Counted from the first letter of the stretch, positions 3,643-57,140 are shown. The stretch is 64,000 bases of DNA from an uncultured Prevotella sp. (GCA_963931275.1 OZ006992.1:63810-127809); one strand, 5' to 3'. Notes: generated by a model not told the origin, from the sequence alone. Made by a program: numbers and translations.

Positions 3643-3674
3643 ATGTGGTTGACTGTCAGTTATTTGTGACAGTG

Positions 3675-10699: not shown

Positions 10700-10701
10700 G
10701 T

Positions 10702-10801
10702 AATTCATAATTCACGATTCATAATGCATGATTGGGTCGGGTTCAGACAATACGCAGAGGCGTATGCCAAATTGTGAATTATGAATTGTGGATTATGAAT
10801 T
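10702..10801. repeat. periodic-unit hairpin between ptb and buk
   Basis: Arms 10702-10732 and 10770-10801 built from GAATTATGAAT-like units, ~26/31 complementary. Confidence 0.6.
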
Positions 10802-10844
10802 AGCTGTTGTGGCATTATGAATTATGAATAAGAATAAAAAAGAT

Positions 10845-11903: not shown

Positions 11904-11936
11904 TTTTTTGAATTAAGATTGAGGGCATTTTAAGTT

Positions 11937-12024
11937 AAGAATTAAGAGTTAAGGATTAAGAAAACCACCATAGTTAAATCATGGGCAAAGCATGTTTTCT
12001 TAATCCTTAACTCTTAATTCTTAA
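11937..12024. repeat. periodic-unit hairpin, 30-bp perfect stem
   Basis: TAAGAATTAAGAGTTAAGGATTAAGAAAAC (11937-11966) is exactly complementary to 11995-12024. Loop 28 nt. Confidence 0.85.
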
Positions 12025-14349: not shown

Positions 14350-14435
14350 CGCGGTTTTCCGTTTTGTGGCCTTTTGCCGTGCGGAAGGCCGCCTTTTGAG
14401 CGATGAAAGGCCGTCTTTTGCACGATGAAACGCGG
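14350..14435. repeat. REP-like palindromic element
   Basis: GTGGCCTTTTGCCGTGCGGAAGGCCGCCTTTTGAGCGATGAAAGGCCGTCTTTTGCACGATGAAAC. Confidence 0.75.
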
Positions 14436-16124: not shown

Positions 16125-16128
16125 TCTG

Positions 16129-16242
16129 GAAGTTATAGAATTTAAAGAAGTTACAGAAGTTAAAGCCATTACCATTAATAAATAATGTGCCATTAATGCA
16201 TTTGGCTTTAACTTCTGTAACTTCTTTAAATTCTATAACTTC
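16129..16242. repeat. periodic-unit hairpin, 39-bp perfect stem (GAAGTTAAAG units)
   Basis: GAAGTTATAGAATTTAAAGAAGTTACAGAAGTTAAAGCC (16129-16167) is exactly complementary to 16204-16242. Loop 36 nt. Confidence 0.9.
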
Positions 16243-16313
16243 TTTTATCCTCTTTCAGTAAATCGTTTTGTTTTATCAGTAAATCGGATACGGCTTTTTT
16301 CTTTGTTTTTGTG

Positions 16314-19571: not shown

Positions 19572-19583
19572 AAATAGGGAATG

Positions 19584-19680
19584 GAGAATTGAGAATTGGG
19601 AATGGAAAATTATGATTTGTCTTGTGGATTAACGGACTGCAGAAGTAATCATAATTCTCCATTCCCAATTATCAATTCTC
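19584..19680. repeat. periodic-unit hairpin between convergent genes
   Basis: Arms 19584-19617 and 19647-19680, 32/34 complementary (GAGAATTGGGAATGG units). The right arm overlaps the tlpA-like stop. Confidence 0.8.
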
Positions 19681-20209
19681 AATTTAATTTGGAAAACCGC
19701 CTCGCGGCCAGTGTGTCGCCCATGGCTTTGACATCGACCGTGGCGAAGTCAACCTTGCCCTCGGGGTCGATGAGGTAGAGCGTGGGTATCCACCTTACGT
19801 TATACAGCGTGGCATACGCGCTTTCACGCCACGGCTTGCCCTCAAGGTGCTGCATCCAGTACAGCTCGTTCTCCTCGATGTACGCGCTCCACTGCTCCTC
19901 GTCTTCGTCAAACGATACGCCCACCATCGTCAGCCCCCGCTCGGCGTAGGCTTCATATATGCGCTTCATTTCGGGCGTGGCCTCCTGGCAGTCGGGGCAC
20001 CATGACGCCCAAAACTCTATCAGCACATACCCGCCGCGCAGTTCGCTCAGCCGGATGCCGTCAGGCCGTTCGGCCGTCAGGAGCGTGATGTCGGGCGCGG
20101 CCGTGCCCTTTTCGAGCAGCCCCTTGCCGTACTCGCTCGTGCCGTGTCCGTCTATCGTACACGAGATTATGCATAAGGCCAAGGCCGCGAAAGCCAAAAT
20201 ATTCTTCAT
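19679..20209 (-). CDS. TlpA/redoxin-family thiol-disulfide oxidoreductase lipoprotein
   Basis: MKNILAFAALALCIISC lipobox and WASWCPDC active site. Start moved to ATG 20209. Confidence 0.88.
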   Translation of the reverse strand: MKNILAFAALALCIISCTIDGHGTSEYGKGLLEKGTAAPDITLLTAERPDGIRLSELRGGYVLIEFWASWCPDCQEATPEMKRIYEAYAERGLTMVGVSFDEDEEQWSAYIEENELYWMQHLEGKPWRESAYATLYNVRWIPTLYLIDPEGKVDFATVDVKAMGDTLAARRFSKLN

Positions 20210-23623: not shown

Positions 23624-23998
23624 ATGAATAGAACGGATACAGACATGGCACTCTTTCCGCAGTGCCCGATAAGGAATGTGTTGTCGAGGATAGGCGACAA
23701 GTGGTCGATGCTGGTGCTTTTCACGCTTGAAAAGTATGGTGTCCTGCGCTTCAACGGCCTGAAGCTGTACATCCCCGACATATCGAAGAAGATGCTTTCC
23801 GCGGTGCTGAAGACGCTTGAGGCTGACGGCTTGGTGTCAAGGAAGGTGTACGCCGAAGTGCCGCCGAGGGTGGAGTACGGCCTGACGGAGCGCGGGATGA
23901 CGCTCATTCCGCTTATTGACAACCTGATAAGCTGGGCGAAAGCCAATATGGATGACATATTGGCGGACAGGAACAATTATTTAATTCATAATGCATAA
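23624..23998 (+). CDS. HxlR-family winged-helix transcriptional regulator
   Basis: CPIRNVLSRIGDKWSMLVLFTL...RFNGLK..I..ISKKMLSAVLKTLEADGLVSRKVY.EVPPRVEYGLTERG. Start placed at ATG 23624. Confidence 0.9.
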   Translation: MNRTDTDMALFPQCPIRNVLSRIGDKWSMLVLFTLEKYGVLRFNGLKLYIPDISKKMLSAVLKTLEADGLVSRKVYAEVPPRVEYGLTERGMTLIPLIDNLISWAKANMDDILADRNNYLIHNA

Positions 23999-24081
23999 TG
24001 CACAATTCATAATAAGGCCTACGGTCAATGAGGAGACGGTGCGCAGCTTTATTATGAATTGTGCATTATGCATTATGAATT
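23983..24081. repeat. periodic-unit hairpin, 33-bp perfect stem, between convergent hxlR and nadB
   Basis: AATTCATAATGCATAATGCACAATTCATAATAA (23983-24015) is exactly complementary to 24049-24081. The left arm encodes the last residues and the stop of hxlR. Confidence 0.88.
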
Positions 24082-25906: not shown

Positions 25907-27241
25907 ATGACTAATTTTGCACCGATGATTACTAACCGAATATTCCGTCACAGGGCTTTTCTGCCCTGCCGTGCCGCCGTGGTCGCGGCTGTTGTTTCCC
26001 TGTTGTTGATGTCTTCGTGGTGTCCTGCCGTGGGGTGGGGGCGTGCCGTCAATGCCACAGCCGGTGGCGGCAAAGACACCGTAGAGGTGGATTCCGCTGG
26101 CGGCGACATCCTCATTTCAGAGCCAGACAGGCTTTGGCCGCTTGATGTGCAGTCGCGTCTTGAGACGTTGTTGGAGAGCAGCATCTTCGAGACTTCAACC
26201 GTGGGGATGATGGTTTACGACCTTACGGCCGACTCTGTGATTTTTAGGCATAACGAGCGGCAACTGATGCGGCCGGCCAGCACGATGAAGATGATGGTGG
26301 CCGTGGCGGCTCTCGACCGCTTGGGCAAGGACTACAAGTATGAGACAAGCTTGCTGTACACGGGCGACGTGGACGGCAACACGCTTGACGGCGACCTGTT
26401 TTGCAAGGGCGGGTTCGACCCGATGTTCGACTCAGGCGACCTCGACGTGTTTGTTGACAGCGTGCGCAGCCTTGGCGTTGACACTATAAGCGGCGACATC
26501 TACGCCGACGTTTCGATGAAGGATGACGACCGACTGGGCGAAGGCTGGTGCTGGGACGATGACAATCCGGTGCTTTCGCCGCTGCTGCTTTCACGTGAGG
26601 ACGACTTCTGCGAACGGCTGAGGAGCCGTCTGCGCAGGGTTGGCATTGTGGTGACAGGTGAAGTTAAGACGGGGCGCACGCCGCGCCGTGCCCGTGAGCT
26701 TTGCATTGTTTCGCGCCGGTTGGACGATGTTTTGCCGCGCATGATGAAGAAGAGCGACAACCTGTATGCCGAGTCGGTGTTCTATCATCTGGCCGCATCG
26801 GCTGGCTCGTCAGCACCGGCCACGGCGAAGACGGGGCGCAACGTGATGAACGGCCTTATAGAGCGGCTCGGCTTCAAGCCGTCAAGGTATTACATAGCCG
26901 ACGGCAGCGGACTGTCGCTTTACAACTACGTGTCGCCTGAATTGGAGGTGGCGTTCCTCAAATACGCCTACAAGCATGACCGCATTTATGCGCCCCTGTA
27001 TGCCGTAATGCCGATAGCCGGGGTTGACGGCACGCTCGGCAGGCGTATGCGCCACGGCTACGCCCGCGGCAATGTGCATGCGAAGACGGGCACGGTGACG
27101 GGTGTCAGCGCGCTGGCAGGATACTGCAAGGCGGCAAACGGGCATGTGCTTTGCTTCTCAATCATCAACATGGGCATACGCCATTCGTCGTCAGGGCGCA
27201 ACTTCCAGGACCGTGTCTGCGAGGCTCTTTGCCGGCCGTAA
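25907..27241 (+). CDS. dacB: D-alanyl-D-alanine carboxypeptidase/endopeptidase (PBP4, peptidase S13)
   Basis: PASTMKM (SxxK), SDN, AKTGT (KTG) motifs. Start uncertain (25889 GTG, 25907 or 25925 ATG). Confidence 0.88.
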   Translation: MTNFAPMITNRIFRHRAFLPCRAAVVAAVVSLLLMSSWCPAVGWGRAVNATAGGGKDTVEVDSAGGDILISEPDRLWPLDVQSRLETLLESSIFETSTVGMMVYDLTADSVIFRHNERQLMRPASTMKMMVAVAALDRLGKDYKYETSLLYTGDVDGNTLDGDLFCKGGFDPMFDSGDLDVFVDSVRSLGVDTISGDIYADVSMKDDDRLGEGWCWDDDNPVLSPLLLSREDDFCERLRSRLRRVGIVVTGEVKTGRTPRRARELCIVSRRLDDVLPRMMKKSDNLYAESVFYHLAASAGSSAPATAKTGRNVMNGLIERLGFKPSRYYIADGSGLSLYNYVSPELEVAFLKYAYKHDRIYAPLYAVMPIAGVDGTLGRRMRHGYARGNVHAKTGTVTGVSALAGYCKAANGHVLCFSIINMGIRHSSSGRNFQDRVCEALCRP

Positions 27242-27251
27242 GTCTTTTTTG

Positions 27252-27440
27252 GGAAGTTAAAGAAGTTATAGAATTTAAAGAAGTTAAAGACAAGTGTTTT
27301 GCTGCTTGCGTTTTTTGGAAGTTAAAGAAGTTATAGAATTTAAAGGAGTTAAAGCCAAATGCTTTGCCGATTGCGTTTTTTTTGGAAGTTAAAGAAGTTA
27401 TAGAAGTTAAAGGAATTAAAGCCAAGTGCTTTGCTCTTTG
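27252..27440 (+). repeat. three direct tandem copies (~65-67 nt) of a single hairpin arm plus junction
   Basis: Units start at 27252, 27317 and 27384: GGAAGTTAAAGAAGTTATAGAATTTAAAG[AG]AGTTAAAG[AC]C-A[AG][AG]TG(C)TTTGC.... All are in one orientation, with no complementary partner nearby. Confidence 0.85.
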
Positions 27441-27463
27441 TAATCAATTGATAATCAAGGATG

Positions 27464-27543
27464 TTGCAAAAGGGCATCTTCCGCATTGCGGAAGATGCCC
27501 TTTTGGCGTGCGTTTTGTGGCCTTTCGCCGTGCGAAAGGCCAT
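27464..27543. repeat. REP-like palindromic element
   Basis: AAAAGGGCATCTTCCGCATTGCGGAAGATGCCCTTTT, then GTGGCCTTTCGCCGTGCGAAAGGCCAT. Confidence 0.8.
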
Positions 27544-27549
27544 GAACTG

Positions 27550-27934
27550 GGTTCATCCGCAAACCTTTTGGATGGCAACAATGCGTAGCAGGGCGTCGAA
27601 GACGTCCAATGTAGCTTAGCCGCATGTGGAGTGAAACGGAACTTGCGGCATGTATGCGCAAATAATATCGTCCTCGAAGAGGGCGAACGGCATTTACGGT
27701 TGTAAGGTTTAAGGTTATACGGTTATTGGGGTATACGGACATACCGCATAACCGTAAGAACCCGCCACCGCATAACCCAACACGCCATTCGCCCCCTTCG
27801 GGGACGGTTGGGGTAGTTTCGACTTACCGCAGGTTACGTTCGCCGCGCTCACTCCACCGGCGGTTAAGCGGAGTTTGCCCCCTTCGGGGACAGGATATAC
27901 TTTTATGTACAATCCAAAAGGTTTGCGGATGAAC
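27550..27934 (+). mobile_element. 385-bp MITE copy A (non-autonomous element)
   Basis: Terminal inverted repeats GTTCATCCGCAAACCTTTTGGAT (27551-27573 versus 27912-27934, 23/23). Flanked by a direct 9-bp duplication CATGAACTG (27541-27549 and 27935-27943). ~95% identical to the reverse complement of 56713-57097. Confidence 0.85.
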
Positions 27935-28072
27935 CATGAACTGCAAATACGGTGATTGCTTATTGCTTGATGTCGAAAGCTTGTGCGCATGATACGAAGA
28001 CAGCCGTCATGGCGTGGCGGATTGTTGGTCGCCCACTGCCTGACGGCTGTCGTGATGTTCAAGAAAGCTCCT

Positions 28073-29797
28073 TTACTCAACCTCGGCCTCCGCTGCGCGG
28101 AAGTTTACAAGGTCTTCGGCGATGAAGCTCTTCACGTATGTGTAATGTCCTACAACGTCTTCTTCTGCGTAACGCACGTACACGTTCGCGCTCTTGTTGA
28201 AGAGCTGCGGCGCACGGGTGGCGTCGTCGAGTATGAGCAGCGACATTAGGATGTCTCCGGTCATGTCGTACAGGCGGCGTCCGAGGAAGTCGTGAGCCTC
28301 CTGGCTGCCAAGTTCCTTCACGTAGTTCACGGCCTGTTCGTACAGTTCCACCATCTTCCTGACACGCTCCTGGAGCGGTTTCAGCTCTTCGGCAACCTCG
28401 TTTTCAAGCATCTCTTTTATTATTCCGAGGTAAGTTCCGTTGGTGATGTAGCGGATGGCGGCCACAACCTGAAGCTGCGTTGTGCCCTCGTATATAGAGA
28501 AGATGCGCGCGTCGCGGTAGAGACGCTGGCACTTGTACTCCATGATGAAGCCCGAACCGCCGTGTACCTGAATGGCGTCGTAGGCGTTCTGGTTGACGTA
28601 TTCTGAGTTCATACCCTTGGCCACGGGCGTGAAAGCGTCGGCCAGGCGTGAGTATTTCTTCAGTTCCTGACGCTCCTCTGCCGTCAGTTTGCGTTCGCGC
28701 GAGATGTCCTCAAGAGCCTTGTAAATGTCAACGTAGCGCGCCGTCATGTACAGGATGCTGCGCCCTGCGTCAAGTTTAGCCTTCATGCGCGAGAGCATGT
28801 CGTACACTGCGGGGAAGTTTATGATGGCCTTGTCGAACTGCTTGCGCTCCTTGGCGTATGCCAACGCCTCGTTGTATGCGGCCTGGCTTACGCCCACGCT
28901 CTGGGCTGCTATGCCCAAGCGTGCGCCGTTCATCAGTGCCATCACATATTTTATAAGGCCAAGACGGGTGCTGCCGCACAGTTCGGCCTTGGCGTTCTTG
29001 AACACGAGTTCGCAAGTGGGAGAGCCGTGTATGCCGAGCTTGTTCTCTATGTGGCGCACAGTAACGCCGCCGTTCCTCTTGTCGTAGATGAACATCGACA
29101 GTCCGCGGCCGTCATGTGTGCCGGCTTCGCTGCGGGCGAGGACGAGGTGTATGTCAGAGTCTCCGTTCGTGATGAAACGCTTTACGCCGTTAAGCAGCCA
29201 GCAGCCGTCGGCTTCGCTGTACGTAGCCTTGAGCATTACGCGCTGCAGGTCAGAGCCGGCGTCAGGCTCGGTGAGGTCCATGCTCATCGTCTCTCCGGCG
29301 CAAACGCGCGGAATGTACTTCTGCCTCTGCTCCTCGTTGCCGAACTCATAGAGTGTCTCTATGCAGTCCTGCAAGCTCCAGATGTTCTGGAATCCGGCAT
29401 CGGCGGCGGCAACAAGCTCTGAAGCCATCGAGTAGGGAGTCACAGGCATGTTAAGTCCGCCGTAACGGCGGGGCATCGACAGTCCCCAAAGGCCGGCCTT
29501 TCGCGTTGCGTCAAGGTTCTCATAGGTCTTTGATGCGTAGTGCATGCGGCCGTCAACGAGGTGCGGCCCTTCCGTGTCCACTTCCTCGCTGTTCGGTTCA
29601 AGTATGTTGGCGGCGATGTCGCCGGTGATTTCCAACACTCTCTTATAGTTCTCGATGGCGTCCTCATAGTCAACGGGCGCGTCTGCGTATTCATCCTTGT
29701 CGGCGAAGTTGCGCTCCTTCAGCTCGACAATCCTTTTCATGAGGGGATGGTTGAGGTGGAACTCAAACTCAGGATGGTCTGTATAATAGTTAGCCAT
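28073..29797 (-). CDS. acyl-CoA dehydrogenase (long form, Etf-linked)
   Basis: 574 aa. ...LTEPDAGSDL..., GIHGSPT, IYEGTTQLQ motifs. Last gene of the etfB-etfA-acd operon. Confidence 0.9.
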   Translation of the reverse strand: MANYYTDHPEFEFHLNHPLMKRIVELKERNFADKDEYADAPVDYEDAIENYKRVLEITGDIAANILEPNSEEVDTEGPHLVDGRMHYASKTYENLDATRKAGLWGLSMPRRYGGLNMPVTPYSMASELVAAADAGFQNIWSLQDCIETLYEFGNEEQRQKYIPRVCAGETMSMDLTEPDAGSDLQRVMLKATYSEADGCWLLNGVKRFITNGDSDIHLVLARSEAGTHDGRGLSMFIYDKRNGGVTVRHIENKLGIHGSPTCELVFKNAKAELCGSTRLGLIKYVMALMNGARLGIAAQSVGVSQAAYNEALAYAKERKQFDKAIINFPAVYDMLSRMKAKLDAGRSILYMTARYVDIYKALEDISRERKLTAEERQELKKYSRLADAFTPVAKGMNSEYVNQNAYDAIQVHGGSGFIMEYKCQRLYRDARIFSIYEGTTQLQVVAAIRYITNGTYLGIIKEMLENEVAEELKPLQERVRKMVELYEQAVNYVKELGSQEAHDFLGRRLYDMTGDILMSLLILDDATRAPQLFNKSANVYVRYAEEDVVGHYTYVKSFIAEDLVNFRAAEAEVE

Positions 29798-29814
29798 TGT
29801 TTTGATGTTTTTAT

Positions 29815-30337
29815 TGAAGTTAGCAGGAGTTAACGGGAGTTAGGCGCTTCGCGCCGGAGTTAACGGACATGTGCCTTGTTGCTGATTACGGCTATATGTC
29901 GTCTTTTATTCCGTTGTTCTTTATTATTCCCTTACAATATGAATTCAGATACCAACTTGTTTTTCAATCAATGCCTGAAGGCTTTTCGCGTCTTCGGTAG
30001 TTATGTATTTCAGGTCTGTTGCCAAGATGATGTAATATCTGCATTCTTCCAGACTACCTTGGGCTATATTCAGAAATCTAAGTTTATCCGCTTTACCCAA
30101 TTTTCTGTATCCTTCAGCTATGTTTGAAGGAATAGACACCGCTGCTCTTTGGAATTGTGAAGTTAATCCGAATGCTTCTGTGGAAGGAAACTTTTTCGTC
30201 ATTTCATATACGGATAACACAAATTCATGTGCTATCTGCCAAGCTACTATGTTTTTGAAGTTGTTTGTCATAAAAGCATTTGTCTGTTAACTCCAGCGAG
30301 CGTAGCGAGCTAATTCCTGTTAACTCCAGCTTACTCC
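29815..30337 (-). mobile_element. inverted-repeat cassette 1 enclosing a four-helix-bundle ORF
   Basis: Arms 29815-29868 and 30282-30337 (GGAGTTAAC units, ~80% complementary). Fills the 552-bp etfA-acd spacer to within 12-18 nt of both genes. Confidence 0.7.
29945..30271 (-). CDS. four-helix-bundle protein (23S rRNA IVS protein / Avd-like family), possibly C-terminally short
   Basis: MTNNFKNIVAWQIAHEFVLSVYEMTKKFP...FQRAAVSIPSNIAEGYRK...AQGSLEECRYYIILA. 108 aa. Confidence 0.85.
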   Translation of the reverse strand: MTNNFKNIVAWQIAHEFVLSVYEMTKKFPSTEAFGLTSQFQRAAVSIPSNIAEGYRKLGKADKLRFLNIAQGSLEECRYYIILATDLKYITTEDAKSLQALIEKQVGI

Positions 30338-30349
30338 TTATTAAAAATG

Positions 30350-31372
30350 TTACTTGCTGTTCTGTTTGTAATACTTGATGAGCTTCGGAACGACATCCTC
30401 CACCGTGCCAACTATCACGTAATCGGCTATCTGGTTGATAGGTGCGTCGGGGTCGCTGTTGATTGAAATGATGATGCCTGAGTCCTGCATGCCGGCTATG
30501 TGCTGGATTTGGCCGGATATTCCACAGGCGATGTAGACTTTCGGATGCACCGTAACGCCGGTCTGTCCGATTTGCCTGTCGTGGTCAACGAAGCCCGCGT
30601 CAACCGCGGCGCGGCTCGCACCGACTTCTCCATGCAGTTCTTTGGCGAGCTGGAATAGTAGGTCAAAGCCCTCTTTGCTGCCAACTCCGTAACCTCCGGC
30701 AACTACAATCGGCGCGCCTTTGAGGTTGTGTTTGGCTGCCTCTACGTGGCGGTCGATAACCTTGACGATGAAGTCTGCCGGGTCAGTGTACTTGCTTGCG
30801 TCGGGATATACCACCTCGTTCTTCGCCTCTCCGTCATACAAAGCCTTCTGCATAACGCCGCTGCGGACGGTCGCCATCTGCGGCCTGTGGTCGGGGTTTA
30901 CGATAGTCGCCACGATGTTACCGCCGAAAGCGGGGCGTATTTGGTAAAGAAGGTTGTCATAATGTTTGCCCGCTTTCTTGTCGTCATAGTCGCCGATTTC
31001 GAGTTGTGTGCAGTCGGCGGTGAGTCCGCTGGTGAGCGATGACGATACGCGGGGACCCAAGTCGCGTCCTATCACGGTTGCGCCCATGAGGCAAATCTGC
31101 GGTTTTTCCTCCTTGAAAAGGTTCACCAGAATTGACGTATGGGGCGCAGATGTGTACGGGAACAGTCCTTCGGCGTCGAAAACGAACAGCTTGTCAACGC
31201 CGTAAGGCAGGATTTGGCTTTCAACTTTGCCCTTGATGCCAGTGCCGGCAACCACGGCGTGCAGCTCTACGCCAAGCTGACAGGCGAGCTTGCGGCCCTT
31301 GGTGAGCAATTCTTGAGACACTTCGGCAACGGTAGTGCCTTCTATCTCGCAATATACGAATACGTTGTTCAT
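30350..31372 (-). CDS. etfA: electron transfer flavoprotein subunit alpha
   Basis: 340 aa. ...VVAGGYGVGS..., YIACGISGQIQHIAGM. Confidence 0.93.
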   Translation of the reverse strand: MNNVFVYCEIEGTTVAEVSQELLTKGRKLACQLGVELHAVVAGTGIKGKVESQILPYGVDKLFVFDAEGLFPYTSAPHTSILVNLFKEEKPQICLMGATVIGRDLGPRVSSSLTSGLTADCTQLEIGDYDDKKAGKHYDNLLYQIRPAFGGNIVATIVNPDHRPQMATVRSGVMQKALYDGEAKNEVVYPDASKYTDPADFIVKVIDRHVEAAKHNLKGAPIVVAGGYGVGSKEGFDLLFQLAKELHGEVGASRAAVDAGFVDHDRQIGQTGVTVHPKVYIACGISGQIQHIAGMQDSGIIISINSDPDAPINQIADYVIVGTVEDVVPKLIKYYKQNSK

Positions 31373-31382
31373 GTTTTCTTTA

Positions 31383-31917
31383 AGAATTTATAGAATTTAA
31401 AGAAGTTATAGAAGTTAAAGCCATTTGCTTTTATGGATGTATCATTCCATGGTTTCGCAGAATGTGCTTTCTTTGATTTTCCTGCTGTAGGCATTCAAAA
31501 GTCTGCTTGTGTTTTCTATTTCTTCACATAGCAAAGCATACCTGTTTTGGTCTATGTACCCCAAATCATGCGATAGTATGATGTAATACCTGCATTCTTC
31601 GAGACTGCCTTGTGAGATGTTCATAAAACGAAGTTTGTCAGCCTTGCTTATCTTTCTGTAACCTTCAGCAATATTGGCGGCAATAGAAACGGCCGCCCTT
31701 TCAAATTGTGGGCATAGGGCAAATCGTTCATGTCTTGGAAATAAACATGTTGTTTTGTATACATCCAGTACGAATTTGTGTGACGCTTGCCATGCCAAAA
31801 GATTTTGAAAGGTGTTGCTCATTTTGTTTTCTTGCTGTAAAGTATCCACGCCTTGCTGTCTGCCATGAAAGGTATTGGCTTTAACTTCTTTTACTTCTAT
31901 AACTTCTTTAACTTCCC
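31383..31917 (-). mobile_element. inverted-repeat cassette 2 enclosing a four-helix-bundle ORF
   Basis: Arms 31383-31422 and 31876-31917 (GAAGTTAWAG units, imperfect). Fills the 552-bp etfB-etfA spacer to within 7-10 nt of both genes. Confidence 0.7.
31442..31822 (-). CDS. four-helix-bundle protein (23S rRNA IVS protein / Avd-like family)
   Basis: MSNTFQNLLAWQASHKFVLDVYKTTCLFP...FERAAVSIAANIAEGYRK...SQGSLEECRYYIILS. 126 aa from ATG 31822. Confidence 0.88.
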   Translation of the reverse strand: MSNTFQNLLAWQASHKFVLDVYKTTCLFPRHERFALCPQFERAAVSIAANIAEGYRKISKADKLRFMNISQGSLEECRYYIILSHDLGYIDQNRYALLCEEIENTSRLLNAYSRKIKESTFCETME

Positions 31918-31924
31918 AATGAAT

Positions 31925-32794
31925 TTATCCAATTATCTTTTCTTCGAGCAGTTCTTTTATCATTCCTTCCACGTCGGTGTCGCTGCCGGTGAGGGTTTTG
32001 CTCTCTTTGGCCTGGAACACTATGTTCTTGACGGCTTTCACCTTGGTGGGCGAGCCAGCGAGTCCGCATTGCTGCGGGTCGCCGTCGATGTCGGCTACAG
32101 ACCATTGGTTGAGCGTCAGGTAGGGTCGCGTCTCATACAGTTCGGCGTGCGGCGTCTCCGGTGTGCGCTCGAGGGGCACGGTGGCGTATTTGTATTTCAT
32201 CACCAGCTTGGCGTTGCACGGGCGGCATGGTGCCGCGCTGCCGTTGACGGTCACAACGATGGGCATCGGTGCTTCCACCGTCTCCACTCCGCCGTCGATG
32301 TGGCGGCGTATGGTCAGCTTGCCGTCTTCGCATTTCAGTATTTCTTCGGCGTATGTCACTTGTGACAGTCCGAGCTTCTGGGCTACCTGGGGGCCTACCT
32401 GCGCGGTGTCGCCGTCGATTGCCTGGCGGCCTCCGATGATGATGTCAGCTCCGCCGATGTGTTTTATTGCCGTGGCGAGAGCGTAAGAGGTGGCGAGAGT
32501 GTCGGCACCGGCGAACAGGCGGTCGGTCAGCAGCCAGCCCGTGTCGGCTCCGCGGTAAAGTCCTTGGCGGATGATTTCAGCGGCGCGGGGAGGACCCATT
32601 GTAAGCACGCCTACGGTAGAACCGGGGTTCTGCTCTTTCAGGCGCAGGGCCTGTTCGAGCGCGTTTAGGTCTTCTGGGTTGAAGATTGCGGGCAGTGCGG
32701 CGCGGTTGACCGTCCCTTCGGCGGTCATCGCGTCCTTGCCCACGTTCCTCGTGTCGGGTACTTGTTTTGCAAGTACGATGATTTTAAGATTCAT
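31925..32794 (-). CDS. etfB: electron transfer flavoprotein subunit beta
   Basis: MNLKIIVLAKQVPDTRNV..., ADIIIGGRQAIDGDTAQVG. Confidence 0.93.
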   Translation of the reverse strand: MNLKIIVLAKQVPDTRNVGKDAMTAEGTVNRAALPAIFNPEDLNALEQALRLKEQNPGSTVGVLTMGPPRAAEIIRQGLYRGADTGWLLTDRLFAGADTLATSYALATAIKHIGGADIIIGGRQAIDGDTAQVGPQVAQKLGLSQVTYAEEILKCEDGKLTIRRHIDGGVETVEAPMPIVVTVNGSAAPCRPCNAKLVMKYKYATVPLERTPETPHAELYETRPYLTLNQWSVADIDGDPQQCGLAGSPTKVKAVKNIVFQAKESKTLTGSDTDVEGMIKELLEEKIIG

Positions 32795-32827
32795 AGTAGT
32801 ATATTAATAATGTAAAGTTCTATGTTG

Positions 32828-32835
32828 CAAAAATA
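32828..32835 (-). promoter_or_regulatory. Bacteroidetes -7 box TATTTTTG (etf operon)
   Basis: CAAAAATA on the plus strand, 34 nt upstream of the etfB ATG at 32794. Confidence 0.55.
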
Positions 32836-32876
32836 CACTTTTTTTGCGTGTCGGCAAAAGAAATGGGATTTTTTTA

Positions 32877-32989
32877 GGAGTTAAAGGAGTTAAGGGAGTC
32901 AAAGGAGTTAAGGACGCATGCTTTACGTGTTGGTAACCAACAGGGCATTTGTCTTTAACTCCTTTGACTCCCTTAACTCCTTTAACTAC
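32877..32989. repeat. periodic-unit hairpin (GGAGTTAAAG units), 37/39 stem
   Basis: GGAGTTAAAGGAGTTAAGGGAGTCAAAGGAGTTAAGGAC (32877-32915) pairs with 32951-32989. Lies just downstream of the META-domain gene. Confidence 0.88.
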
Positions 32990-32996
32990 GGTCTTT

Positions 32997-33431
32997 TTAC
33001 CTTTTCTCCAAGGTCATTACGGTCTTGCCGTCGGCAGTCTTGAGGTTCATTTTGCCGCCGGCCGTGATTTCGTATTTCTCGATTTTGCCCATTGCGCCAA
33101 GCACTTTGTTCTCGGTCTCCATGTCGGGGCACATCATCCTTGTGCTTCCCGTCTGTCCGAATGACATCGTGCCCTTCTTCGGGTCGGCCTGTATGCCGCC
33201 CACAAGGTTGTTGCATCCCGTGCATCCGTACAGGCGGTTGTCCTTTACGCTGAAGCCTATGAAGGCTTCCTTCTCGCCGGCTTTCTGCGTCAGGGCCTGT
33301 CCGTCAATTGTCGTGATTTTCCATTCTCCGTCGAGCGCGCCGAGCGTAGATGCGGCGTTGCGCGCCGTTCCGCATGATGTCATTACTGCGAGTACGCCCG
33401 CCATGCACAGGGCGATTAGTGGCTTTTTCAT
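32997..33431 (-). CDS. META-domain (HslJ-like) lipoprotein
   Basis: MKKPLIALCMAGVLAVMTSC lipobox, G.W.I..I.G, GCNN..G, MMC motifs. Start moved to ATG 33431. Confidence 0.85.
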   Translation of the reverse strand: MKKPLIALCMAGVLAVMTSCGTARNAASTLGALDGEWKITTIDGQALTQKAGEKEAFIGFSVKDNRLYGCTGCNNLVGGIQADPKKGTMSFGQTGSTRMMCPDMETENKVLGAMGKIEKYEITAGGKMNLKTADGKTVMTLEKR

Positions 33432-34303: not shown

Positions 34304-36232
34304 ATGATAGACAAAGCCACTATTGACAAAATCATGGACGCGGCGAACATCGTTGACGTCGTGTCTGAGTTCGTCACCCTGCGAAAGGCCGGGGTGAACT
34401 ACAAGGGGCTGTGCCCGTTCCACAACGAGAAGACGCCTTCGTTCGTGGTGTCGCCCTCGAAGGGCTACTGCCACTGCTTCTCGTGCGGCAAGGGCGGCAA
34501 CGCCGTGGGCTTCATCATGGAGCATGAGCAGATGACCTACCCCGAAGCCCTGCGCTGGCTGGCCAAGAAATACAACATAGAAATCCACGAACGGGAACTG
34601 ACCGACGAGGAGAAGCGCGAGGAGAGCGAGCGCGAGAGCCTGTTCATAGTGAACGACTGGGCCTTGCATTACTTCCAGGACAATCTCATGAACACCGAGC
34701 GCGGGCGTGCCATCGGCCTTGCGTATTTCCGCTCGCGCGGCTTCCGCGACGACACCATCAGCCGCTTCCAGCTCGGTTACGCAATGCCTGAGCGCGACGC
34801 CCTGGCCAAGGCCGCAAGGGCGAAAGGCTTCAAGGAGGAGTTTCTCATAACCACGGGGCTTTGCTACCGCCGCGATGACGGCACGCTGCAAGACCGCTAC
34901 GCCGGGCGCGTCATCTTCCCCGTGCATACCGTTACGGGGCGCGTAGTGGCCTTCGGAGGCCGCATCCTGGAGAACAACAAGAAGGCGGCGAAGTATGTCA
35001 ACTCGCCCGAGTCGCTCATCTACCACAAGAGCAACGAGCTGTACGGCATATACCAGGCCAAGCACGCCATAACGAAACAGGACCGGTGCTACCTCGTAGA
35101 GGGATATATCGACGTCACGTCGATGCACCAGAGTGGCGTTGAGAACGTCGTGGCATCGTCTGGCACGTCGCTCACCACGGGGCAAATCCGCCTGATCCGC
35201 CGCTTCTCTACCAACATAACCGTGCTTTACGACGGCGACGCCGCCGGCATACATGCCTCCATACGAGGCATCGACATGCTGCTGGCCGAGGGCATGAATG
35301 TCAAGGTGTTGCTGCTGCCTGACGGCGACGACCCTGACAGCTTCGCCCAAAAGCACCCGGCGGAGGAGTTTCGCAATTACATCGAAGCCCACCAGACTGA
35401 CTTCATCGAGTTCAAGACCAACCTGCTGCTCCGTGGCGTCACCGACCCTGTAAAACGTTCGGAGGCTATCAGCAGCATAGTCAAGAGCGTGTCGGTTGTG
35501 CCCGACCAAATCACACGAGCCACGTATCTGACCGAATGCGCACATCGTCTCGGTATGAGTGAATCGACGCTGATAAACACCGCCAACCAGTTCATACGCG
35601 GCGACATTGAGGAGAAGCGCAAGGAACAGCGGCGTGAGGAGGCCAAGGCCGACGGCCCGGTGAAGCCTCTGCAGCCGCTAAACGCCACAGCGGGGCAGCC
35701 CTCTGTTGAGTACATGTTGATGCAAATGGTCGTGCGCCACGGGCAGGAGACGCTTTACAAGGACATCGAGACCGAGGACGGCGGCAAGGTTGACCTCAGC
35801 GTGTCGCAGTATGTCAGTTACGACCTCGGGGCTGACGACCTGAAGTTCAACAACGACCTGTACAATCGCATGTTGGCCGAGGCCGTGGCACACAACGACG
35901 ACGAGGGCTTCAATGCCGAGGCTTATTTCACCCATCACCCCGACATCGACATCAGCCGCACGGCCACAGACATGGCCATCGACCATTTCCAGTTGAGCAA
36001 GAGCCTGCAAGTGAAGCGCGACGAGGACACCCTGCGCAACCAGGTTGAGCATCTAATACTCGACTTCCGCATGGATTACGTCGAGCGTCACCTCAAGGAG
36101 CTGCAGCGTGAAATCAGCCTCGCGGCCAACGATACCGACAAAGTGATGAAGCTGATGGCCGAATACAAGGACATGCAAGCCATACGCAACGAAATCGCGA
36201 AAGAGCTTGGAAGCGACATATTGATTAAATGA
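34304..36232 (+). CDS. dnaG: DNA primase
   Basis: Zinc-binding CPFHNEKTPSF.V....Y.CFSCG.GG and TOPRIM EGYIDV...YDGDAAG. Confidence 0.95.
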   Translation: MIDKATIDKIMDAANIVDVVSEFVTLRKAGVNYKGLCPFHNEKTPSFVVSPSKGYCHCFSCGKGGNAVGFIMEHEQMTYPEALRWLAKKYNIEIHERELTDEEKREESERESLFIVNDWALHYFQDNLMNTERGRAIGLAYFRSRGFRDDTISRFQLGYAMPERDALAKAARAKGFKEEFLITTGLCYRRDDGTLQDRYAGRVIFPVHTVTGRVVAFGGRILENNKKAAKYVNSPESLIYHKSNELYGIYQAKHAITKQDRCYLVEGYIDVTSMHQSGVENVVASSGTSLTTGQIRLIRRFSTNITVLYDGDAAGIHASIRGIDMLLAEGMNVKVLLLPDGDDPDSFAQKHPAEEFRNYIEAHQTDFIEFKTNLLLRGVTDPVKRSEAISSIVKSVSVVPDQITRATYLTECAHRLGMSESTLINTANQFIRGDIEEKRKEQRREEAKADGPVKPLQPLNATAGQPSVEYMLMQMVVRHGQETLYKDIETEDGGKVDLSVSQYVSYDLGADDLKFNNDLYNRMLAEAVAHNDDEGFNAEAYFTHHPDIDISRTATDMAIDHFQLSKSLQVKRDEDTLRNQVEHLILDFRMDYVERHLKELQREISLAANDTDKVMKLMAEYKDMQAIRNEIAKELGSDILIK

Positions 36233-36428
36233 ATAATGAAAAATTAATGATGAATAATCGGGGATAATAATGAATGATTTGAAAAAATCCATAATGGACG
36301 AACTAACTGCGCTGGCTCATGAATGGATGTGACGATGTAACTTGACGTTTCATTTTCCGTTTCCAACGCTTTCGTACATAAAGCGGCGCGGCGTGATTTT
36401 TCATTATTCATTTTTCATTATTCATTAA
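36226..36428. repeat. periodic-unit inverted repeat (GAATAATGAAAAAT units) with long spacer
   Basis: TAAATGAATAATGAAAAAT (36226-36244) versus 36410-36428, 18/19. Additional unit copies lie on both sides. Overlaps the dnaG stop. Confidence 0.55.
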
Positions 36429-44377: not shown

Positions 44378-45895
44378 ATGATTGTAGACGAACTGGCACG
44401 CCAGATAACAGCTTCTTTCGGCTTTGCTCCCACGGCGGAACAAGCGGCCGCCGTGGATGTGTTTTGCCGTTTCATGACCGATGCCGACGACCACGCGGTC
44501 ATGATATTGCGCGGTTCGGCGGGAACGGGCAAGACCACCTTGTCGTCCGCCATTGTGAAGACGCTCGCCCGTTTGGGGCGGAAGCTCGTGCTGCTTGCCC
44601 CCACGGGGCGTGCGGCCAAGGTGTTCTCGCTGAACTCGGGCAAGCGAGCGTTGACCATACACAGGAAAATCTACCGCCAAAAGACATTCGCCGCCAGCGG
44701 GGGATGCTTCAACCTTAACGACAACCTCGCGCAAGATACGCTCTTCATAGTTGACGAAGCGTCGATGATAGCCAACGACGGGATGTCAGACACGATGTCG
44801 TTCGGCACGGGGCGACTGCTCGACGACCTCGTGTGTTACGTCTACGGCGGGCGCAACTGCCGCCTGATGCTTGTAGGCGACAAGGCGCAGCTACCGCCGA
44901 TAGGCGAGGATGAGTCGCCCGCCTTGATGTCCGCCTACATGGCCGGTTACGGCCTGAAGGTGTATGAGTGCGACCTGACCGAGGTGTTGCGCCAGGCCGA
45001 AGGCTCGGGCATATTGTACAACGCCACGGTTGTGAGGCGGATGATTACCCATGACGAGATGACCCTCTTGCCGAGAATCACCTTCTCGCGGTTCGCCGAC
45101 ATACGCATGGTGCCGGGCGACGAACTCATCGAGCAGCTTGCCGGTAGCTACTCGGCGGTGGGCGAGGACGAGACAATCGTCATCACGCGGAGCAACAAGC
45201 GCGCCAATATCTACAACGCCGGGATACGCAACATGGTGCTTGGGCGTGAAGAGGAGCTGTCAACGGGAGACATGCTCATGGTCGTGAAGAACAATTATTA
45301 TTGGTTGGAAAGGGAAAAACAGGCCATCCCTGTCTCGCCGGCGGGGATAGAACAGGCAGTCGGCAGCGGCGGTCAGCCTTCCACGCGCGGCGATGGCGGC
45401 GTGGGGCTGTTCATCGCCAACGGTGACAGGGCTTACGTGCAGCGTGTGCGCAACGTGCGTGAGCTGTACGGTTTCCGCTTCGCCGACGTGTGGCTGCAGT
45501 TCCCCGATTACGACGATTACGAGTTGCAGGTGACGATGATGGTTGACACGTTGACGTCGGAAGCCCCGGCGTTGACCCGCCAGCAGAACGAGCAGTTGTT
45601 CAATGCCGTGCTTGAGGACTATCAGGACGTGCCCCGCAAGGCCGACCGCATCAAGCGCATACGCGAGGACATGTACTATAACGCCCTGCAGGTGAAGTTC
45701 GCCTATGCCGTGACCTGCCACAAGGCGCAGGGCGGGCAGTGGGCGCATGTGTACATAGACCAGGGCTACATGACCGACGATATGCTCACGCCTGATTACA
45801 TCCACTGGCTTTACACTGCCTTCACCCGCGCCACCGAGCGGCTGTTTCTCGTCAACTGGCCGAAGGCGCAAACTCTTTTTTTAGCAGACGAGTGA
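44378..45895 (+). CDS. RecD/Pif1-like SF1 ATP-dependent DNA helicase
   Basis: Walker A GSAGTGKTT, Walker B FIVDEASM, C-terminal AVTCHKAQGGQW... Confidence 0.88.
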   Translation: MIVDELARQITASFGFAPTAEQAAAVDVFCRFMTDADDHAVMILRGSAGTGKTTLSSAIVKTLARLGRKLVLLAPTGRAAKVFSLNSGKRALTIHRKIYRQKTFAASGGCFNLNDNLAQDTLFIVDEASMIANDGMSDTMSFGTGRLLDDLVCYVYGGRNCRLMLVGDKAQLPPIGEDESPALMSAYMAGYGLKVYECDLTEVLRQAEGSGILYNATVVRRMITHDEMTLLPRITFSRFADIRMVPGDELIEQLAGSYSAVGEDETIVITRSNKRANIYNAGIRNMVLGREEELSTGDMLMVVKNNYYWLEREKQAIPVSPAGIEQAVGSGGQPSTRGDGGVGLFIANGDRAYVQRVRNVRELYGFRFADVWLQFPDYDDYELQVTMMVDTLTSEAPALTRQQNEQLFNAVLEDYQDVPRKADRIKRIREDMYYNALQVKFAYAVTCHKAQGGQWAHVYIDQGYMTDDMLTPDYIHWLYTAFTRATERLFLVNWPKAQTLFLADE

Positions 45896-45983
45896 CGAGC
45901 AGACGAGCAACAAGCAGACGAGCAATAAGCAAACAAGTGACAAGCAACAAACAAATCACCTTGTCTGCTCGTCACTCGTCTGC
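45884..45983. repeat. periodic-unit hairpin (GCAGACGAG units), 21-bp perfect stem
   Basis: GCAGACGAGTGACGAGCAGAC (45884-45904) is exactly complementary to 45963-45983. The left arm encodes the helicase C-terminus (...LADE*). Confidence 0.8.
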
Positions 45984-46053
45984 TTGTCTGCTTAAAAAGA
46001 GGCTTGTCTGCTGATAAAAATCGTAAGCAATTCAGCGTGTTTTCGTTTCAATT

Positions 46054-50084: not shown

Positions 50085-50205
50085 GAAGGAGTTGGGGGAA
50101 GTCAAGGGAGTTAAAGGCAAATGTCTTTCTTTCAGATTTTTCCCAAATGCTGCGATAAGGCATCTGTCTTTAGCTCCTTTGACTTCCATTAACCCCTTTA
50201 ACTCC
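50085..50205. repeat. periodic-unit hairpin (GGAGTTAAAG/GGAAGTCAAG units) between RR and HK genes
   Basis: Arms 50085-50118 and 50166-50205, ~78% complementary. Occupies most of the 145-bp RR-HK spacer. Confidence 0.65.
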
Positions 50206-51675: not shown

Positions 51676-51740
51676 TGTTGTGAAAGGCGGCCTTTTACGT
51701 TGCGAAAGGCCGCTTTTTGCGTCCCGTTTTGCCGCCTTCC
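51676..51740. repeat. REP-like palindromic element
   Basis: GTTGTGAAAGGCGGCCTTTTACGTTGCGAAAGGCCGCTTTTTGCGTCCCGTTTTGCCGCC. Confidence 0.75.
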
Positions 51741-54919: not shown

Positions 54920-54992
54920 AAGAATCAAGAGCTAAGAAAAAATGCCTTGTCGGATGTTCCGACAAGGCATTTTTTCTTAGCTCTTGATTCTT
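54920..54992. repeat. periodic-unit hairpin, 34-bp perfect stem with 5-nt loop, between convergent genes
   Basis: AAGAATCAAGAGCTAAGAAAAAATGCCTTGTCGG (54920-53) ATGTT, then the exact complement at 54959-54992. Imperfect unit copies extend both arms to ~54909 and ~55028. Confidence 0.9.
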
Positions 54993-56624: not shown

Positions 56625-56712
56625 CTTTCCCGTTTGCCGTGTTTCGCGTCGCAAAACGTGGCTTTTTACAACGCAAAAGGCCACAAAACGCACGCTAAAA
56701 TGGCATCCTTCG
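56625..56712. repeat. REP-like palindromic element (left part, split by MITE copy B)
   Basis: ...CGCAAAACGTGGCTTTTTACAACGCAAAAGGCCACAAAACGCACGCTAAAATGGCATCCTTCG. Confidence 0.75.
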
Positions 56713-57097
56713 GGTTCATCCGCAAACCTTTGGGATAGTACATAAAAGTCTATCCTGTCCCCGAAGGGGGCAAACTCCGCTTAACCGCCGGTGGAGTGAG
56801 CGCGGCGAACGTAACCTGCGGTAAGTCGAAACTACTCCAGCCGTCCCCGAAGGGGGCGAATGGCGTGTTGGGTTATGCGGTGGCGGGTTCTTACGGTTAT
56901 GCGGTATGTCCGTATATCCCAATAACCGTATAACCTTAAACCTTACAACCGTAAATGCCGTTCGCCCTCTTCGAGGATGATATTATTTGCGCATACATAC
57001 AGCAAGTTCCGCTTCACTCCACATGCGGTTAAGCTTAATTGGACGTCTTCGACGCCCTGCTACGCATTGTTGTCATCCCAAAGGTTTGCGGATGAAG
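56713..57097 (-). mobile_element. 385-bp MITE copy B (inverted relative to copy A)
   Basis: Same length and ~95% identity to copy A. 9-bp flanking duplication CATCCTTCG (56704-56712) / CATCTTTCG (57098-57106). Confidence 0.85.
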
Positions 57098-57140
57098 CAT
57101 CTTTCGTAATGCGGAAGATGCCATTTTACAATGTGCCGGC
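57098..57140. repeat. REP-like hairpin, right part (split by MITE copy B)
   Basis: CATCTTTCGTAATGCGGAAGATGCCATTTT. Joined to 56697-56712, it restores an AAAATGGCATC.TTCG-TAATG-CGGAAGATGCCATTTT palindrome. Confidence 0.75.

Follow-up and report, generated by a model that had tools for sequence, protein, structure and literature searches.

In a 64,000-nt stretch of DNA from an uncultured Prevotella sp. (GCA_963931275.1 OZ006992.1:63810-127809; hereafter the window, with positions counted from its first letter), both intercistronic spacers of the etfB-etfA-acd operon are occupied by an inverted-repeat stem that encloses one small open reading frame (ORF) on the operon strand. We consider it probable that the two spacers are cassettes of the intervening sequence (IVS) type, in which a small gene enclosed by a stem hitchhikes selfishly on the transcripts of a host operon, and their description as selfish IVS-type insertions is well supported. 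The ORFs, of 126 and 108 aa, are assigned by sequence to PF05635, the family of S23p proteins named after the IVSs of 23S ribosomal RNA (rRNA), and are here called IVP1 (cassette 1, etfB-etfA spacer) and IVP2 (cassette 2, etfA-acd spacer). What is new is the stem-plus-ORF cassette in the spacers of a messenger RNA (mRNA), together with periodic flanks throughout the family; the components were known separately before. In the full-text literature, which leaves most subscription journals outside its coverage, we found neither a prior account of PF05635 cassettes in mRNA spacers nor a prior link of the family to periodic repeats. The stem-plus-ORF unit lives in ordinary operons, and rRNA is thus not its defining habitat.

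Architecture of the two cassettes

A preliminary description of the window had claimed two spacers of exactly 552 bp, each bracketed by an inverted repeat, and both claims were borne out by the ORF map and by repeat analysis (coordinates in Table 1). Cassette 1 is closed by arms of 61 nt that are 79% complementary, with a 28-nt core at 93%; the 5' arm begins 1 nt past the etfB stop codon and the 3' arm ends 3 nt ahead of the etfA ATG. Cassette 2 has two inverted repeats of 26 nt, 29818-29843 with 30310-30335 (85%) and 29852-29877 with 30273-30298 (81%). The ATG of IVP2 sits 1 nt beyond the 5' arm of this cassette, and its 3' arm ends about 18-20 nt ahead of the acd ATG. According to Tandem Repeats Finder (TRF), the arms of both cassettes consist of tandem units of 9-10 nt, with a period of 9 in the 5' arm of cassette 1. 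The description had also suggested that the transcript could fold into a long stem at each spacer, and in our RNA folding a terminal stem closed each whole spacer in both the minimum free energy (MFE) and the centroid folds. The MFE was -142.6 kcal/mol for cassette 1 and -147.1 kcal/mol for cassette 2 (z = -6.1 and -5.9, respectively), and none of 100 shuffled sequences folded as well. The equal length of the spacers, for which coincidence had been allowed, is indeed best taken as a coincidence, because spacers with related cassettes in other species span 449-568 nt.

The cassettes are foreign in composition, codon usage included. Their GC content is 36-41%, against 55-63% for the host genes, and the GC content at third codon positions (GC3) of the ORFs is 0.36-0.42, against 0.64-0.80 in the host genes; the same was found in the 74 other loci described below. 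IVP1 and IVP2 are the only PF05635 ORFs within the 64-kb window.

Both proteins lie far over the curated cut-offs of the family named in the preliminary description: PF05635 gave 120.6 and 127 bits for IVP1 and IVP2 (cut-off 33.8; E = 4e-35 and 4e-37), and TIGR02436 gave 116.3 and 115.7 bits (cut-off 24; E about 1e-33). Over the first 100 aligned columns their identity is 62%, close to the estimate by eye of roughly 60% over the first ~90 residues, and the motifs quoted as shared were found in both. R42, S46, N50 and E53, which form the motif RxxxSxxxNxxE, are invariant or almost so. For IVP1, an alternative GTG start at 31849 would give a product of 135 aa. Its AlphaFold2 model (pLDDT 95) has four helices, at residues 9-25, 36-55, 60-86 and 92-118. 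The nearest structures are XCC0516 (PDB 2GSC; template modelling score, TM, 0.87-0.96) and BT_0352 (2RLD; TM 0.75-0.88), and Avd, the accessory protein of diversity-generating retroelements (DGRs), is more distant (4DWL; TM 0.75-0.88, sequence identity 9-10%). IVP1, a helical bundle of 126 aa, matched no transposase or nuclease family, and the IVP proteins had no match in a PADLOC search for defence systems. The family is large, with 15,377 clusters at 50% identity matching at E <= 0.001, and to our knowledge no function has been established for it since 1993, when the first rRNA IVS ORFs were reported.

The two co-oriented ORFs of 126 and 108 aa that had been described are both present, but the shorter one proved to be the frameshift-truncated form of a gene of about 127 aa. 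In an alignment with the 128-aa orthologue in a related locus (L004), the window has a 1-nt deletion between 29961 and 29960, beyond which the IVP2 codons continue undamaged in the next frame until a stop at 29890-29892. A contig of the same species (L081) likewise has the 108-aa product called. The IVP2 ORF is decaying in the window species. Over the spacer as a whole, cassette 2 and its orthologue in L004 have a MAFFT mean column identity of 95%.

The IVP ORFs are under purifying selection: the ratio of nonsynonymous to synonymous differences is about 0.13-0.17. The proportions of nonsynonymous and synonymous differences (pN/pS) were 0.043/0.33 for IVP2 between the window and L004 and 0.128/0.77 for IVP1 between the window and another locus, L005, and two further ORF pairs gave 0.128/0.79 and 0.097/0.86. 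The arms were conserved even more strongly. Between the window and L005, the arms of cassette 1 were 89% and 94% (3' arm) identical, the ORF 74.5% and the third positions of etfA 64%, and the leader between arm and ATG could not be aligned. Between the window and L004, the 5' and 3' arms of cassette 2 were 92% and 90.5% identical, respectively, against 73% for the third codon positions of etfA. The arms are thus either under constraint at the sequence level or homogenised against other genomic copies.

Site occupancy and distribution of the family

We compared the operon with 80 orthologous etfB-etfA-acd loci in Prevotellaceae, one per species. Spacers of 20 nt or less were found between etfB and etfA in 45 of 79 loci, and between etfA and acd in 35 of 80; such tight spacers are possibly ancestral. 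At synonymous sites of etfA and etfB, the nearest relatives differ from the window by about 40%, and what they carry in the two spacers differs as well. L004 has the orthologue of cassette 2, L005 a relative of cassette 1, and in L006 the spacers are nearly empty. Short ORF-less hairpins with GGAGTTAAG units occupy etf sites in L001-L003, and ORF-less periodic hairpins were also found in L005 and L056. The etfB-etfA site of L004 and L007 holds a different PF05635 lineage with AGTAGTAAG-type arms, whose proteins are 83% identical to each other and only 60-62% identical to IVP1. The empty spacers in many orthologues and the different contents at the same sites argue that the cassettes are insertions and not components of the operon, as the preliminary description had proposed together with a comparison of related operons for empty spacers. 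In a clustering of the IVP sequences, those from the etfA-acd site were not set apart from those of the etfB-etfA site and no clear pattern emerged, so that a single ancient insertion per site is not supported. An apparent 69-nt spacer in L087 was in fact an IVP ORF called with an upstream start.

The etfA-acd site also receives unrelated genes. In five species (L008, L012, L044, L052 and L076, at about 6020-6700) it contains DUF559 ORFs of 125-133 aa with a Vsr-like endonuclease fold, which sit inside GC-rich complementary arms, GCCCCTCCCC...GGGGAGGGGC. Arms of this GC-rich type occur as short hairpins without an ORF in L001 (3760-3887), L044 (4838-4998) and L074 (2343-2464), and hence both the AT-rich and the GC-rich arm types exist as ORF-less short hairpins. 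The DUF559 cassettes look like a parallel class with nuclease cargo. In L062 and L063 (about 6020-6750), the same site holds ORFs of 142-145 aa of the GxxExxY/PDDEXK_3 nuclease family, flanked by CACGAATTAC-type periodic units whose complementarity was judged by eye only. Each of these two ORFs is followed by a hydrophobic small ORF of 58-61 aa, and L060 has two small membrane-like ORFs of that kind and no nuclease.

EtfA orthologues with 97-99% protein identity were all from Prevotella metagenome-assembled genomes. Nine loci with EtfA 89-91% identical (L011, L013, L016, L020, L024, L037, L045, L059 and L067) came from bins with non-Prevotella titles (Oscillibacter, Akkermansia muciniphila, Lachnospiraceae, Oscillospiraceae, Eggerthellaceae, Sphaerochaetaceae and Bacteroides fragilis) and are probably mis-binned Prevotellaceae sequence.

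The association of gene and arms extends beyond the etf operon. A degenerate-pattern scan of metagenome contigs gave 80 loci with homologues 57-77% identical to IVP1, 74 of which could be evaluated. About a third were the etfA-acd site, and the remainder lay between other gene pairs, for example gcvH and an apparent glycine dehydrogenase gene (both identified by eye only). The preliminary description had raised the question of whether other copies of the ORF family have arms; they are the rule, since an ungapped inverted repeat with a score of at least 18 spanned the ORF in 42 of the 74 loci and none of 206 random positions in the same loci. The 5' arm is purine-rich, with typically four to five units of 7-10 nt, and its inner end is a box G[AC]CAAW; the ORF starts 0-30 nt inside the end of the 5' arm and stops 2-30 nt ahead of the 3' arm. 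The unit sequence itself varies between cassettes, with GGAGATAGAA-type and GGGAGTA-type units as examples. The ORFs are co-oriented with the upstream gene in 68 of 69 cases and with the downstream gene in 56 of 63. When a strongly periodic flank was defined as at least 85% self-match in 28 nt at a period of 6-11, it was present in 52 of 78 metagenomic and 10 of 13 distant loci, against 3 of 342 control windows.

Among 31 distinct elements aligned on the box, Watson-Crick pairing was 83% with the element's own partner arm, a value biased upward by the pre-selection of elements at >=70% complementarity, and 45% (standard deviation 3.4%) with swapped partners. Three or four pair types occurred at most of the 39 stem positions. 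In cofolding with swapped partners, arms of different loci did cross-pair, with 36 against 50 pairs.

Distant homologues, 33-56% identical, also have unit-periodic flanks; they come from plasmids of cyanobacteria and Azospirillum and from prophages of Alphaproteobacteria. In five viral contigs there are homologues 33-43% identical, four of which lie between heptamer arrays, for example (GGGAGTA)n on one side and (TACTCCC)n on the other. Arms of this last kind surround the PF05635 gene in the GC-rich, prophage-like contigs L169 (2435-2899) and L170/L171 (2448-2883). A tblastn search of plasmids returned 26 records, mostly cyanobacterial; eight were examined, and by eye the copies of Nostoc punctiforme, Picosynechococcus, Azospirillum, Geminocystis and Stanieria have complementary periodic arms. 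The gene lies between cas10/cmr2 and cmr3 on the Picosynechococcus plasmid (L174, 1460-1890) and between cas6 and cas4 on plasmid pPg_01 of Pseudanabaena galeata (L175, 1360-1990). The copy of Nostoc 7120 has lost its 5' side and adjoins an ISL3 transposase gene. In randomly picked representatives 38-40% identical, arms were seen by eye in three of the four that could be evaluated. Unit-periodic flanks thus accompany the gene in Bacteroidota, Cyanobacteriota, Alphaproteobacteria with their prophages, and Coxiella.

ORF-less forms of the same element are present in the window. The arm of the hairpin at 16127-16244, at an unrelated locus, is made of nearly the same 48 nt as that of cassette 1 (GGAAGTTAWAG AAKTTAWAG AAGTTAWAG AAGTTAAAG plus the box GCCAWTACC), and the same 48-nt arm occurs on cassettes of three other loci (L005, L088 and L098), at both etf sites. 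This common arm indicates that the ORF-less and ORF-bearing forms are one element family. A further ORF-less hairpin (32879-32987) lies directly upstream of etfB, in the gap after a META-domain gene, so that three successive gaps of the gene cluster are occupied. ORF-less hairpins with the same arms therefore populate intergenic gaps, and two nuclease families occur in analogous stems at the same site.

Known systems, proposed mechanism and rival explanations

ORF-bearing IVSs of 23S rRNA occur in Leptospira, Coxiella burnetii, Brucella and Haemophilus, and the sites are helices 9, 25 or 45 of 23S rRNA, or 16S rRNA. They share with the etf cassettes a PF05635/S23p ORF looped out by a long terminal stem, a total length of about 430-760 nt and tandem short units in the 5' stem region, and shorter ORF-less forms exist too. 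The IVS of C. burnetii has a 28-bp stem, an S23p ORF and GACAGAT in 2-3 tandem copies, which differ from strain to strain; RNase III excises this IVS in vitro, and its ORF was reported to be decaying and probably untranslated (PMC4990558). PF05635 ORFs are also present in rRNA insertions of bacteria of the candidate phyla radiation (PMC11270868), and the rRNA element is viewed as a selfish one that moves horizontally (PMC4990558; PMC11270868). In contrast, the etf cassettes are placed between a stop codon and the next start codon in a polycistronic mRNA instead of an rRNA helix, their units are 9-10 nt long and AT-rich, and their ORFs are under clear purifying selection. At the Rfam gathering score, the whole window contained no family and no rRNA, and at E <= 1 the region 27200-33100 gave only chance matches of the hairpin 32879-32987 to microRNA precursors. 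The etf cassettes thus have the enclosing stem and the sporadic distribution of rRNA IVSs; they are IVS-like in architecture and lack the defining rRNA location.

Other intergenic elements share part of this architecture. The ORF-less hairpins of the window resemble elements of the Correia/NEMIS, ERIC and REP/BIME types, which are abundant intergenic hairpins, often in operons near gene 3' ends. Members of the Correia, ERIC and REP families end in fixed inverted repeats, come with an established or presumed transposase (RAYT for REP) and show target duplications, whereas the arms described here are arrays of short units that differ between copies, and some loops carry a four-helix-bundle gene. 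Within mRNAs, RNase III cuts the Correia repeats, which alters the fate of the transcript (PMC10969869). In Xanthomonas, arrays of about four 7-nt units (GGGAATC) form 70-75 convergent pairs per genome that can fold into stem-loops; their mean distance from the upstream ORF is 28 nt, most have co-directional genes on either side, their position is not conserved between species, and they were described as forming G-quadruplexes, with no occurrence of S23 and no link to PF05635 in that paper (PMC4692102). The cyanobacterial STRR repeat (GGGGAYT) occurs also inside the RNase P RNA gene, according to a title cited in PMC2858038. Because the Prevotella units are AT-rich and cannot form G-quadruplexes, periodicity and pairing would be the property shared with the heptamer repeats. 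Eighteen PF05635 genes with the motif GxxRxxxSxxxNxxE were reported from cas operons, one of the positions being that between cmr2 and cmr3; they were read as possibly cas-related, and flanking repeats were not noted (Zhang and Ye 2013, PMC3936711). The copies found here in cas operons on plasmids have the same placement, and they are co-oriented, tightly packed and bounded by unit-periodic flanks. The present data suggest hitchhiking in many kinds of operon. In comparison with a pair of a miniature inverted-repeat transposable element (MITE) and its autonomous partner, the ORF-less copies do have the arm termini of ORF-bearing copies (the 48-nt arm), but no target-site duplication, transposase or polymorphism between close strains was found; the etf cassettes are MITE-like only in having ORF-less derivatives.

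We propose that a cassette would be transcribed by read-through from the host promoter, and that its IVP ORF could be translated while only the 5' arm exists. No sigma-70-type promoter was found in the cassettes on the operon strand, in a scan that did not cover the Bacteroidetes promoter type. Once the 3' arm has been made, a stem of 40-60 bp would form and loop out an interior of roughly 430-470 nt, and the upstream stop codon would be brought beside the downstream A-rich leader and start codon at the stem base. This juxtaposition could explain how cistrons that are closely spaced in many relatives can accommodate an insert of this size. By the precedents of the Coxiella IVS and the Correia repeats, the stem would be a likely substrate of RNase III, and segmentation of the etf mRNA by this enzyme is plausible. 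Over evolutionary time, the elements would spread and be replaced as selfish hitchhikers.

The protein may act on its own element. PF05635 is homologous to Avd (PMC10053308). The pentamer of Avd attaches to a stem-loop of RNA adjacent to the avd gene, where corresponding residues of separate protomers touch flipped-out bases (bioRxiv 10.1101/2023.10.23.563531). By homology, the IVP proteins probably form a pentameric barrel like Avd, and by analogy an IVP protein would most likely bind the structured nucleic acid of its own element. That it binds its own repeat array is the most attractive hypothesis because of the Avd precedent, the four to five units per arm and the conservation of the arms. 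A wider form of this idea, which we put forward tentatively and as somewhat doubtful, is that PF05635 and the unit-periodic flanks are a module co-evolving across phyla, in which a pentamer binds its own array of 4-5 units with about one unit per protomer. If this is true, such binding would control the folding, processing, translation or spread of the element; rRNA IVSs, Xanthomonas heptamer repeats, STRR arrays and cas-linked PF05635 genes would be one class of stem-loop hitchhikers, and the nuclease cassettes of the DUF559 and GxxExxY types would represent parallel classes, each with arms of its own.

Several results weigh against selfish cassettes that act through the sense transcript. Seven contigs have an identical EtfA; both spacers could be compared in four of them, with 0-2 differences in each spacer, and one more shows spacer 1 and part of spacer 2. 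All of these contigs carry the cassettes, which are thus fixed in the window species, and no strain-level insertion polymorphism was found among them; polymorphism in occupancy was seen only between species, at a host pS of about 0.4. No target-site duplication was visible by eye at the junctions of the compared elements, and no transposase-like gene is present in the cassettes. The pS between IVP2 and its L004 orthologue is 0.33, compared to 0.39-0.43 for the host genes, so that the divergence of cassette 2 fits vertical inheritance since the split from L004. The primary sequence of the arms appears to be conserved beyond what would be expected if any stem sufficed, and conservation of arms and protein would equally fit a function useful to the host. 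In about 10 of the 74 Prevotella-type copies no arms were found, which means that the stem is not universal, and the counts at these 74 loci are not fully independent since about a third are the same etfA-acd site. The PF05635 gene of L169 and L170 lies antisense between genes identified by eye as portal and prohead protease, unlike the Prevotella copies, nearly all of which are co-oriented. The Pseudanabaena copy is bounded by direct heptamer arrays, with about 17 AAAAGCT units on the upstream side and about 10 AAAAGCC units on the downstream side; the stem can thus be dispensed with, while periodic arrays persist. An excess of G.U pairs on the sense strand was not found in the 31 elements (40 G.T against 61 A.C mismatches), and neither the cofold energies nor the G.U counts of 16 cassettes showed a sense bias, the antisense strand being as stable or more so. 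The complementarity of the arms has a DNA-like look and gives no sign of adaptation to the sense transcript, and the sequence lends no support to segmentation by RNase III. The evidence for mobility is evolutionary only, and consists of patchy sites, two protein lineages at one site in sister species, arms shared by unrelated loci and by different species, and foreign composition. The preliminary description spoke of selfish or mobile insertions; patchy sites and foreign composition uphold the insertion, but recent mobility was not seen. From the same interpretation we retain the stem-plus-PF05635-ORF architecture and the likeness to IVSs, and give up any relation to Avd beyond the superfamily.

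The fixation of both cassettes with 0-2 differences, the retention of cassette 2 since the L004 split and arms more conserved than synonymous sites would also be expected of domesticated intercistronic RNA elements, which would serve the host as signals of mRNA stability or processing, like REP/BIME, and set the output of etfB, etfA and acd, with the four-helix-bundle protein as a trans-acting partner or a harmless passenger. The window has about a dozen long hairpins with arms made of arrays of 7-9-nt units, which begin 0-30 nt from a stop codon and mostly fill the intergenic gap, some between co-directional and some between convergent genes, and the 28-nt average distance of the Xanthomonas inverted repeats from the upstream ORF points in the same direction. 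We nevertheless regard domestication as unlikely. About half of the orthologous operons manage with spacers of 20 nt or less, and the unrelated DUF559 and GxxExxY cassettes at the same site are hard to square with tuned regulation. The foreign composition and codon usage, one ORF that is frameshifted yet kept, and the same gene-plus-arms unit in cas operons, plasmids and prophage structural modules also speak for hitchhiking. Long stable stems right after stop codons, with similar hairpins between convergent genes, could suggest instead intrinsic terminators or attenuators that split the operon into transcription units. This is highly improbable, because a terminator scan of the minus strand was empty at the arms, the 3' arms are followed by A-rich leaders and no U-tract, no promoter-like site was found that could restart etfA or acd, and loops of about 430-470 nt are outside terminator geometry.

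It is also conceivable, but in our view quite unlikely, that the element works at the level of DNA, with the palindromic arms acting as hairpins or cruciforms, or as arrays for slippage and recombination, and RNA folding as a by-product; complementarity would then be kept by template switching between arms or by gene conversion with genomic copies. The missing G.U excess would fit, as would the many window hairpins that are perfect Watson-Crick palindromes of 31-40 bp, the arm families common to loci and species, a lone-arm array at 27245-27435, the direct arrays of Pseudanabaena and the unit number that varies between Coxiella strains (PMC4990558). However, the co-orientation with the upstream gene in 68 of 69 Prevotella loci points to dependence on a transcript, no recombinase or transposase is associated, and the polarity of 5' purines and 3' pyrimidines is a property of a single strand. 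A DNA-level origin of the complementarity is in any case compatible with selfish hitchhiking on transcripts and does not exclude it. Last, the ORFs had been called Avd-like, which holds at the superfamily level only: the IVP1 model has the fold of Avd, and there are weak matches to bAvd (PF22296; 27.7 and 30.1 bits against a cut-off of 40), DivGenRetAVD (NF033474; 34.3 and 39.8 against 80) and the PHROG "Avd protein of DGR". All Avd-specific scores are nevertheless under their curated cut-offs, the identity to Avd is about 10%, one metabolic operon holds two copies, and XCC0516 and BT_0352 are structurally nearer. Within about 3 kb of the cassettes lie etfB, etfA, acd, the META-domain gene and dnaG, and no reverse transcriptase was called among these genes; in a direct-repeat search of 29700-32000 for a pair of template and variable repeats, the sole long pair was that of the two IVP ORFs. 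Scores, neighbours and structures effectively refute an Avd/DGR identity at the etf locus, and a role of the ORFs as DGR accessory proteins is hardly credible.

For annotation, selfish hitchhiking would argue against taking PF05635 genes in cas, etf, gcv or phage structural operons as functional partners of their neighbours. The long intercistronic hairpins may affect operon expression in abundant gut Prevotella. The cassettes also give a concrete handle on an old and large protein family, with the testable predictions that the protein binds its own repeats and that RNase III segments operon mRNAs.

Feature coordinates and other repeats in the window

The host cistrons, the parts of the cassettes and the related ORF-less elements are listed in Table 1. 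The array of lone 5' arms at 27245-27435 has no complementary arm.

Table 1. Features of the etfB-etfA-acd region and related repeats, in window coordinates
Feature	Position	Strand	Description
etfB, first host cistron	31925-32794	minus	289-aa ORF; PF01012 ETF, E = 5e-41
Cassette 1	31373-31924	minus	entire etfB-etfA spacer; 552 nt, closing terminal stem
Cassette 1, 5' arm (sense)	31863-31923	minus	purine-rich 9-nt units GAAGTTAWA x4, then inner box GCCAATACC
IVP1	31442-31822	minus	126-aa PF05635/TIGR02436 four-helix-bundle ORF; RxxxSxxxNxxE motif intact; GC3 0.42
Cassette 1, 3' arm	31376-31436	minus	box complement GCAAATGGC, then pyrimidine-rich units CTTTAACTT
etfA, second host cistron	30350-31372	minus	340-aa ORF; PF01012 and PF00766 (ETF_alpha)
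Cassette 2	29798-30349	minus	entire etfA-acd spacer; 552 nt, about 38-40% GC, closing terminal stem
Cassette 2, 5' arm (sense)	30273-30338	minus	GGAGTTAAC-type units broken by GCTCGCTACGCTCGC, then inner box GACAAATGC
IVP2	29945-30271	minus	108-aa PF05635 ORF; frameshift-truncated form of ~127-aa gene
Out-of-frame remnant of ancestral IVP2 C-terminus	29890-29960	minus	KTSWYLNSYCKGIIKNNGIKDDI and stop; from translation and alignment to L004
Cassette 2, 3' arm	29815-29877	minus	box complement, then GTTAACTCC-type units
acd, third host cistron	28073-29797	minus	acyl-CoA dehydrogenase, 574-aa ORF; PF12186 (AcylCoA_dehyd_C), PF00441, PF02770, PF02771
ORF-less hairpin, META-domain gene/etfB gap	32879-32987		GGAGTTAAR x4 and box GACAAATGC; 43-nt arms 93%, loop 23 nt
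ORF-less hairpin, unrelated locus	16129-16242		GAAGTTAWAG units and GCCATTACC; 51-nt arms at 92%
ORF-less hairpin, same style	50097-50187		GGAAGTCAAGGGAGTTAAAG and box GCAAATGTC
Three tandem 65-nt copies of lone 5' arm and box	27245-27435	+	GGAAGTTAAAGAAGTTATAGAATTTAAAG..GCCAARTGCTTTGC; TRF period 65, 2.9 copies, 88%

Eight further long and often perfect hairpins were found at 10701-10802, 11935-12024, 19580-19684, 23983-24081, 36228-36426, 45883-45988, 54920-54992 and 61152-61248. They are built of 7-8-nt units (TAATTCA, TTAAGAA, AATGGAG, TAATGCA, AATGAAT, AGCAGACG and AAAGGTAA) and have no G[AC]CAAW box. They begin a few nucleotides from a stop codon, and several are located between convergent genes.

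Two inverted copies of an ORF-less element of about 385 nt, at 27550-27935 and 56712-57096, are very nearly identical in their alignable core. The element has perfect terminal inverted repeats of 22-24 nt (GGTTCATCCGCAAACCTTTTGGAT) and, inside, a hairpin made of TACGGTTA-type units; it resembles a MITE and had no Rfam match. Both copies adjoin a terminator-like hairpin, AAAAGGGCATCTTCCGCA..TGCGGAAGATGCCCTTTT, which occurs in intergenic DNA at 3592-3650, 27463-27505 and about 57100-57140. Finally, TRF identified arrays of about two 22-nt units with GGCCGCCTTTT or GCCTTTTGGC motifs at 14385-14430, 51677-51722 and 63898-63948.

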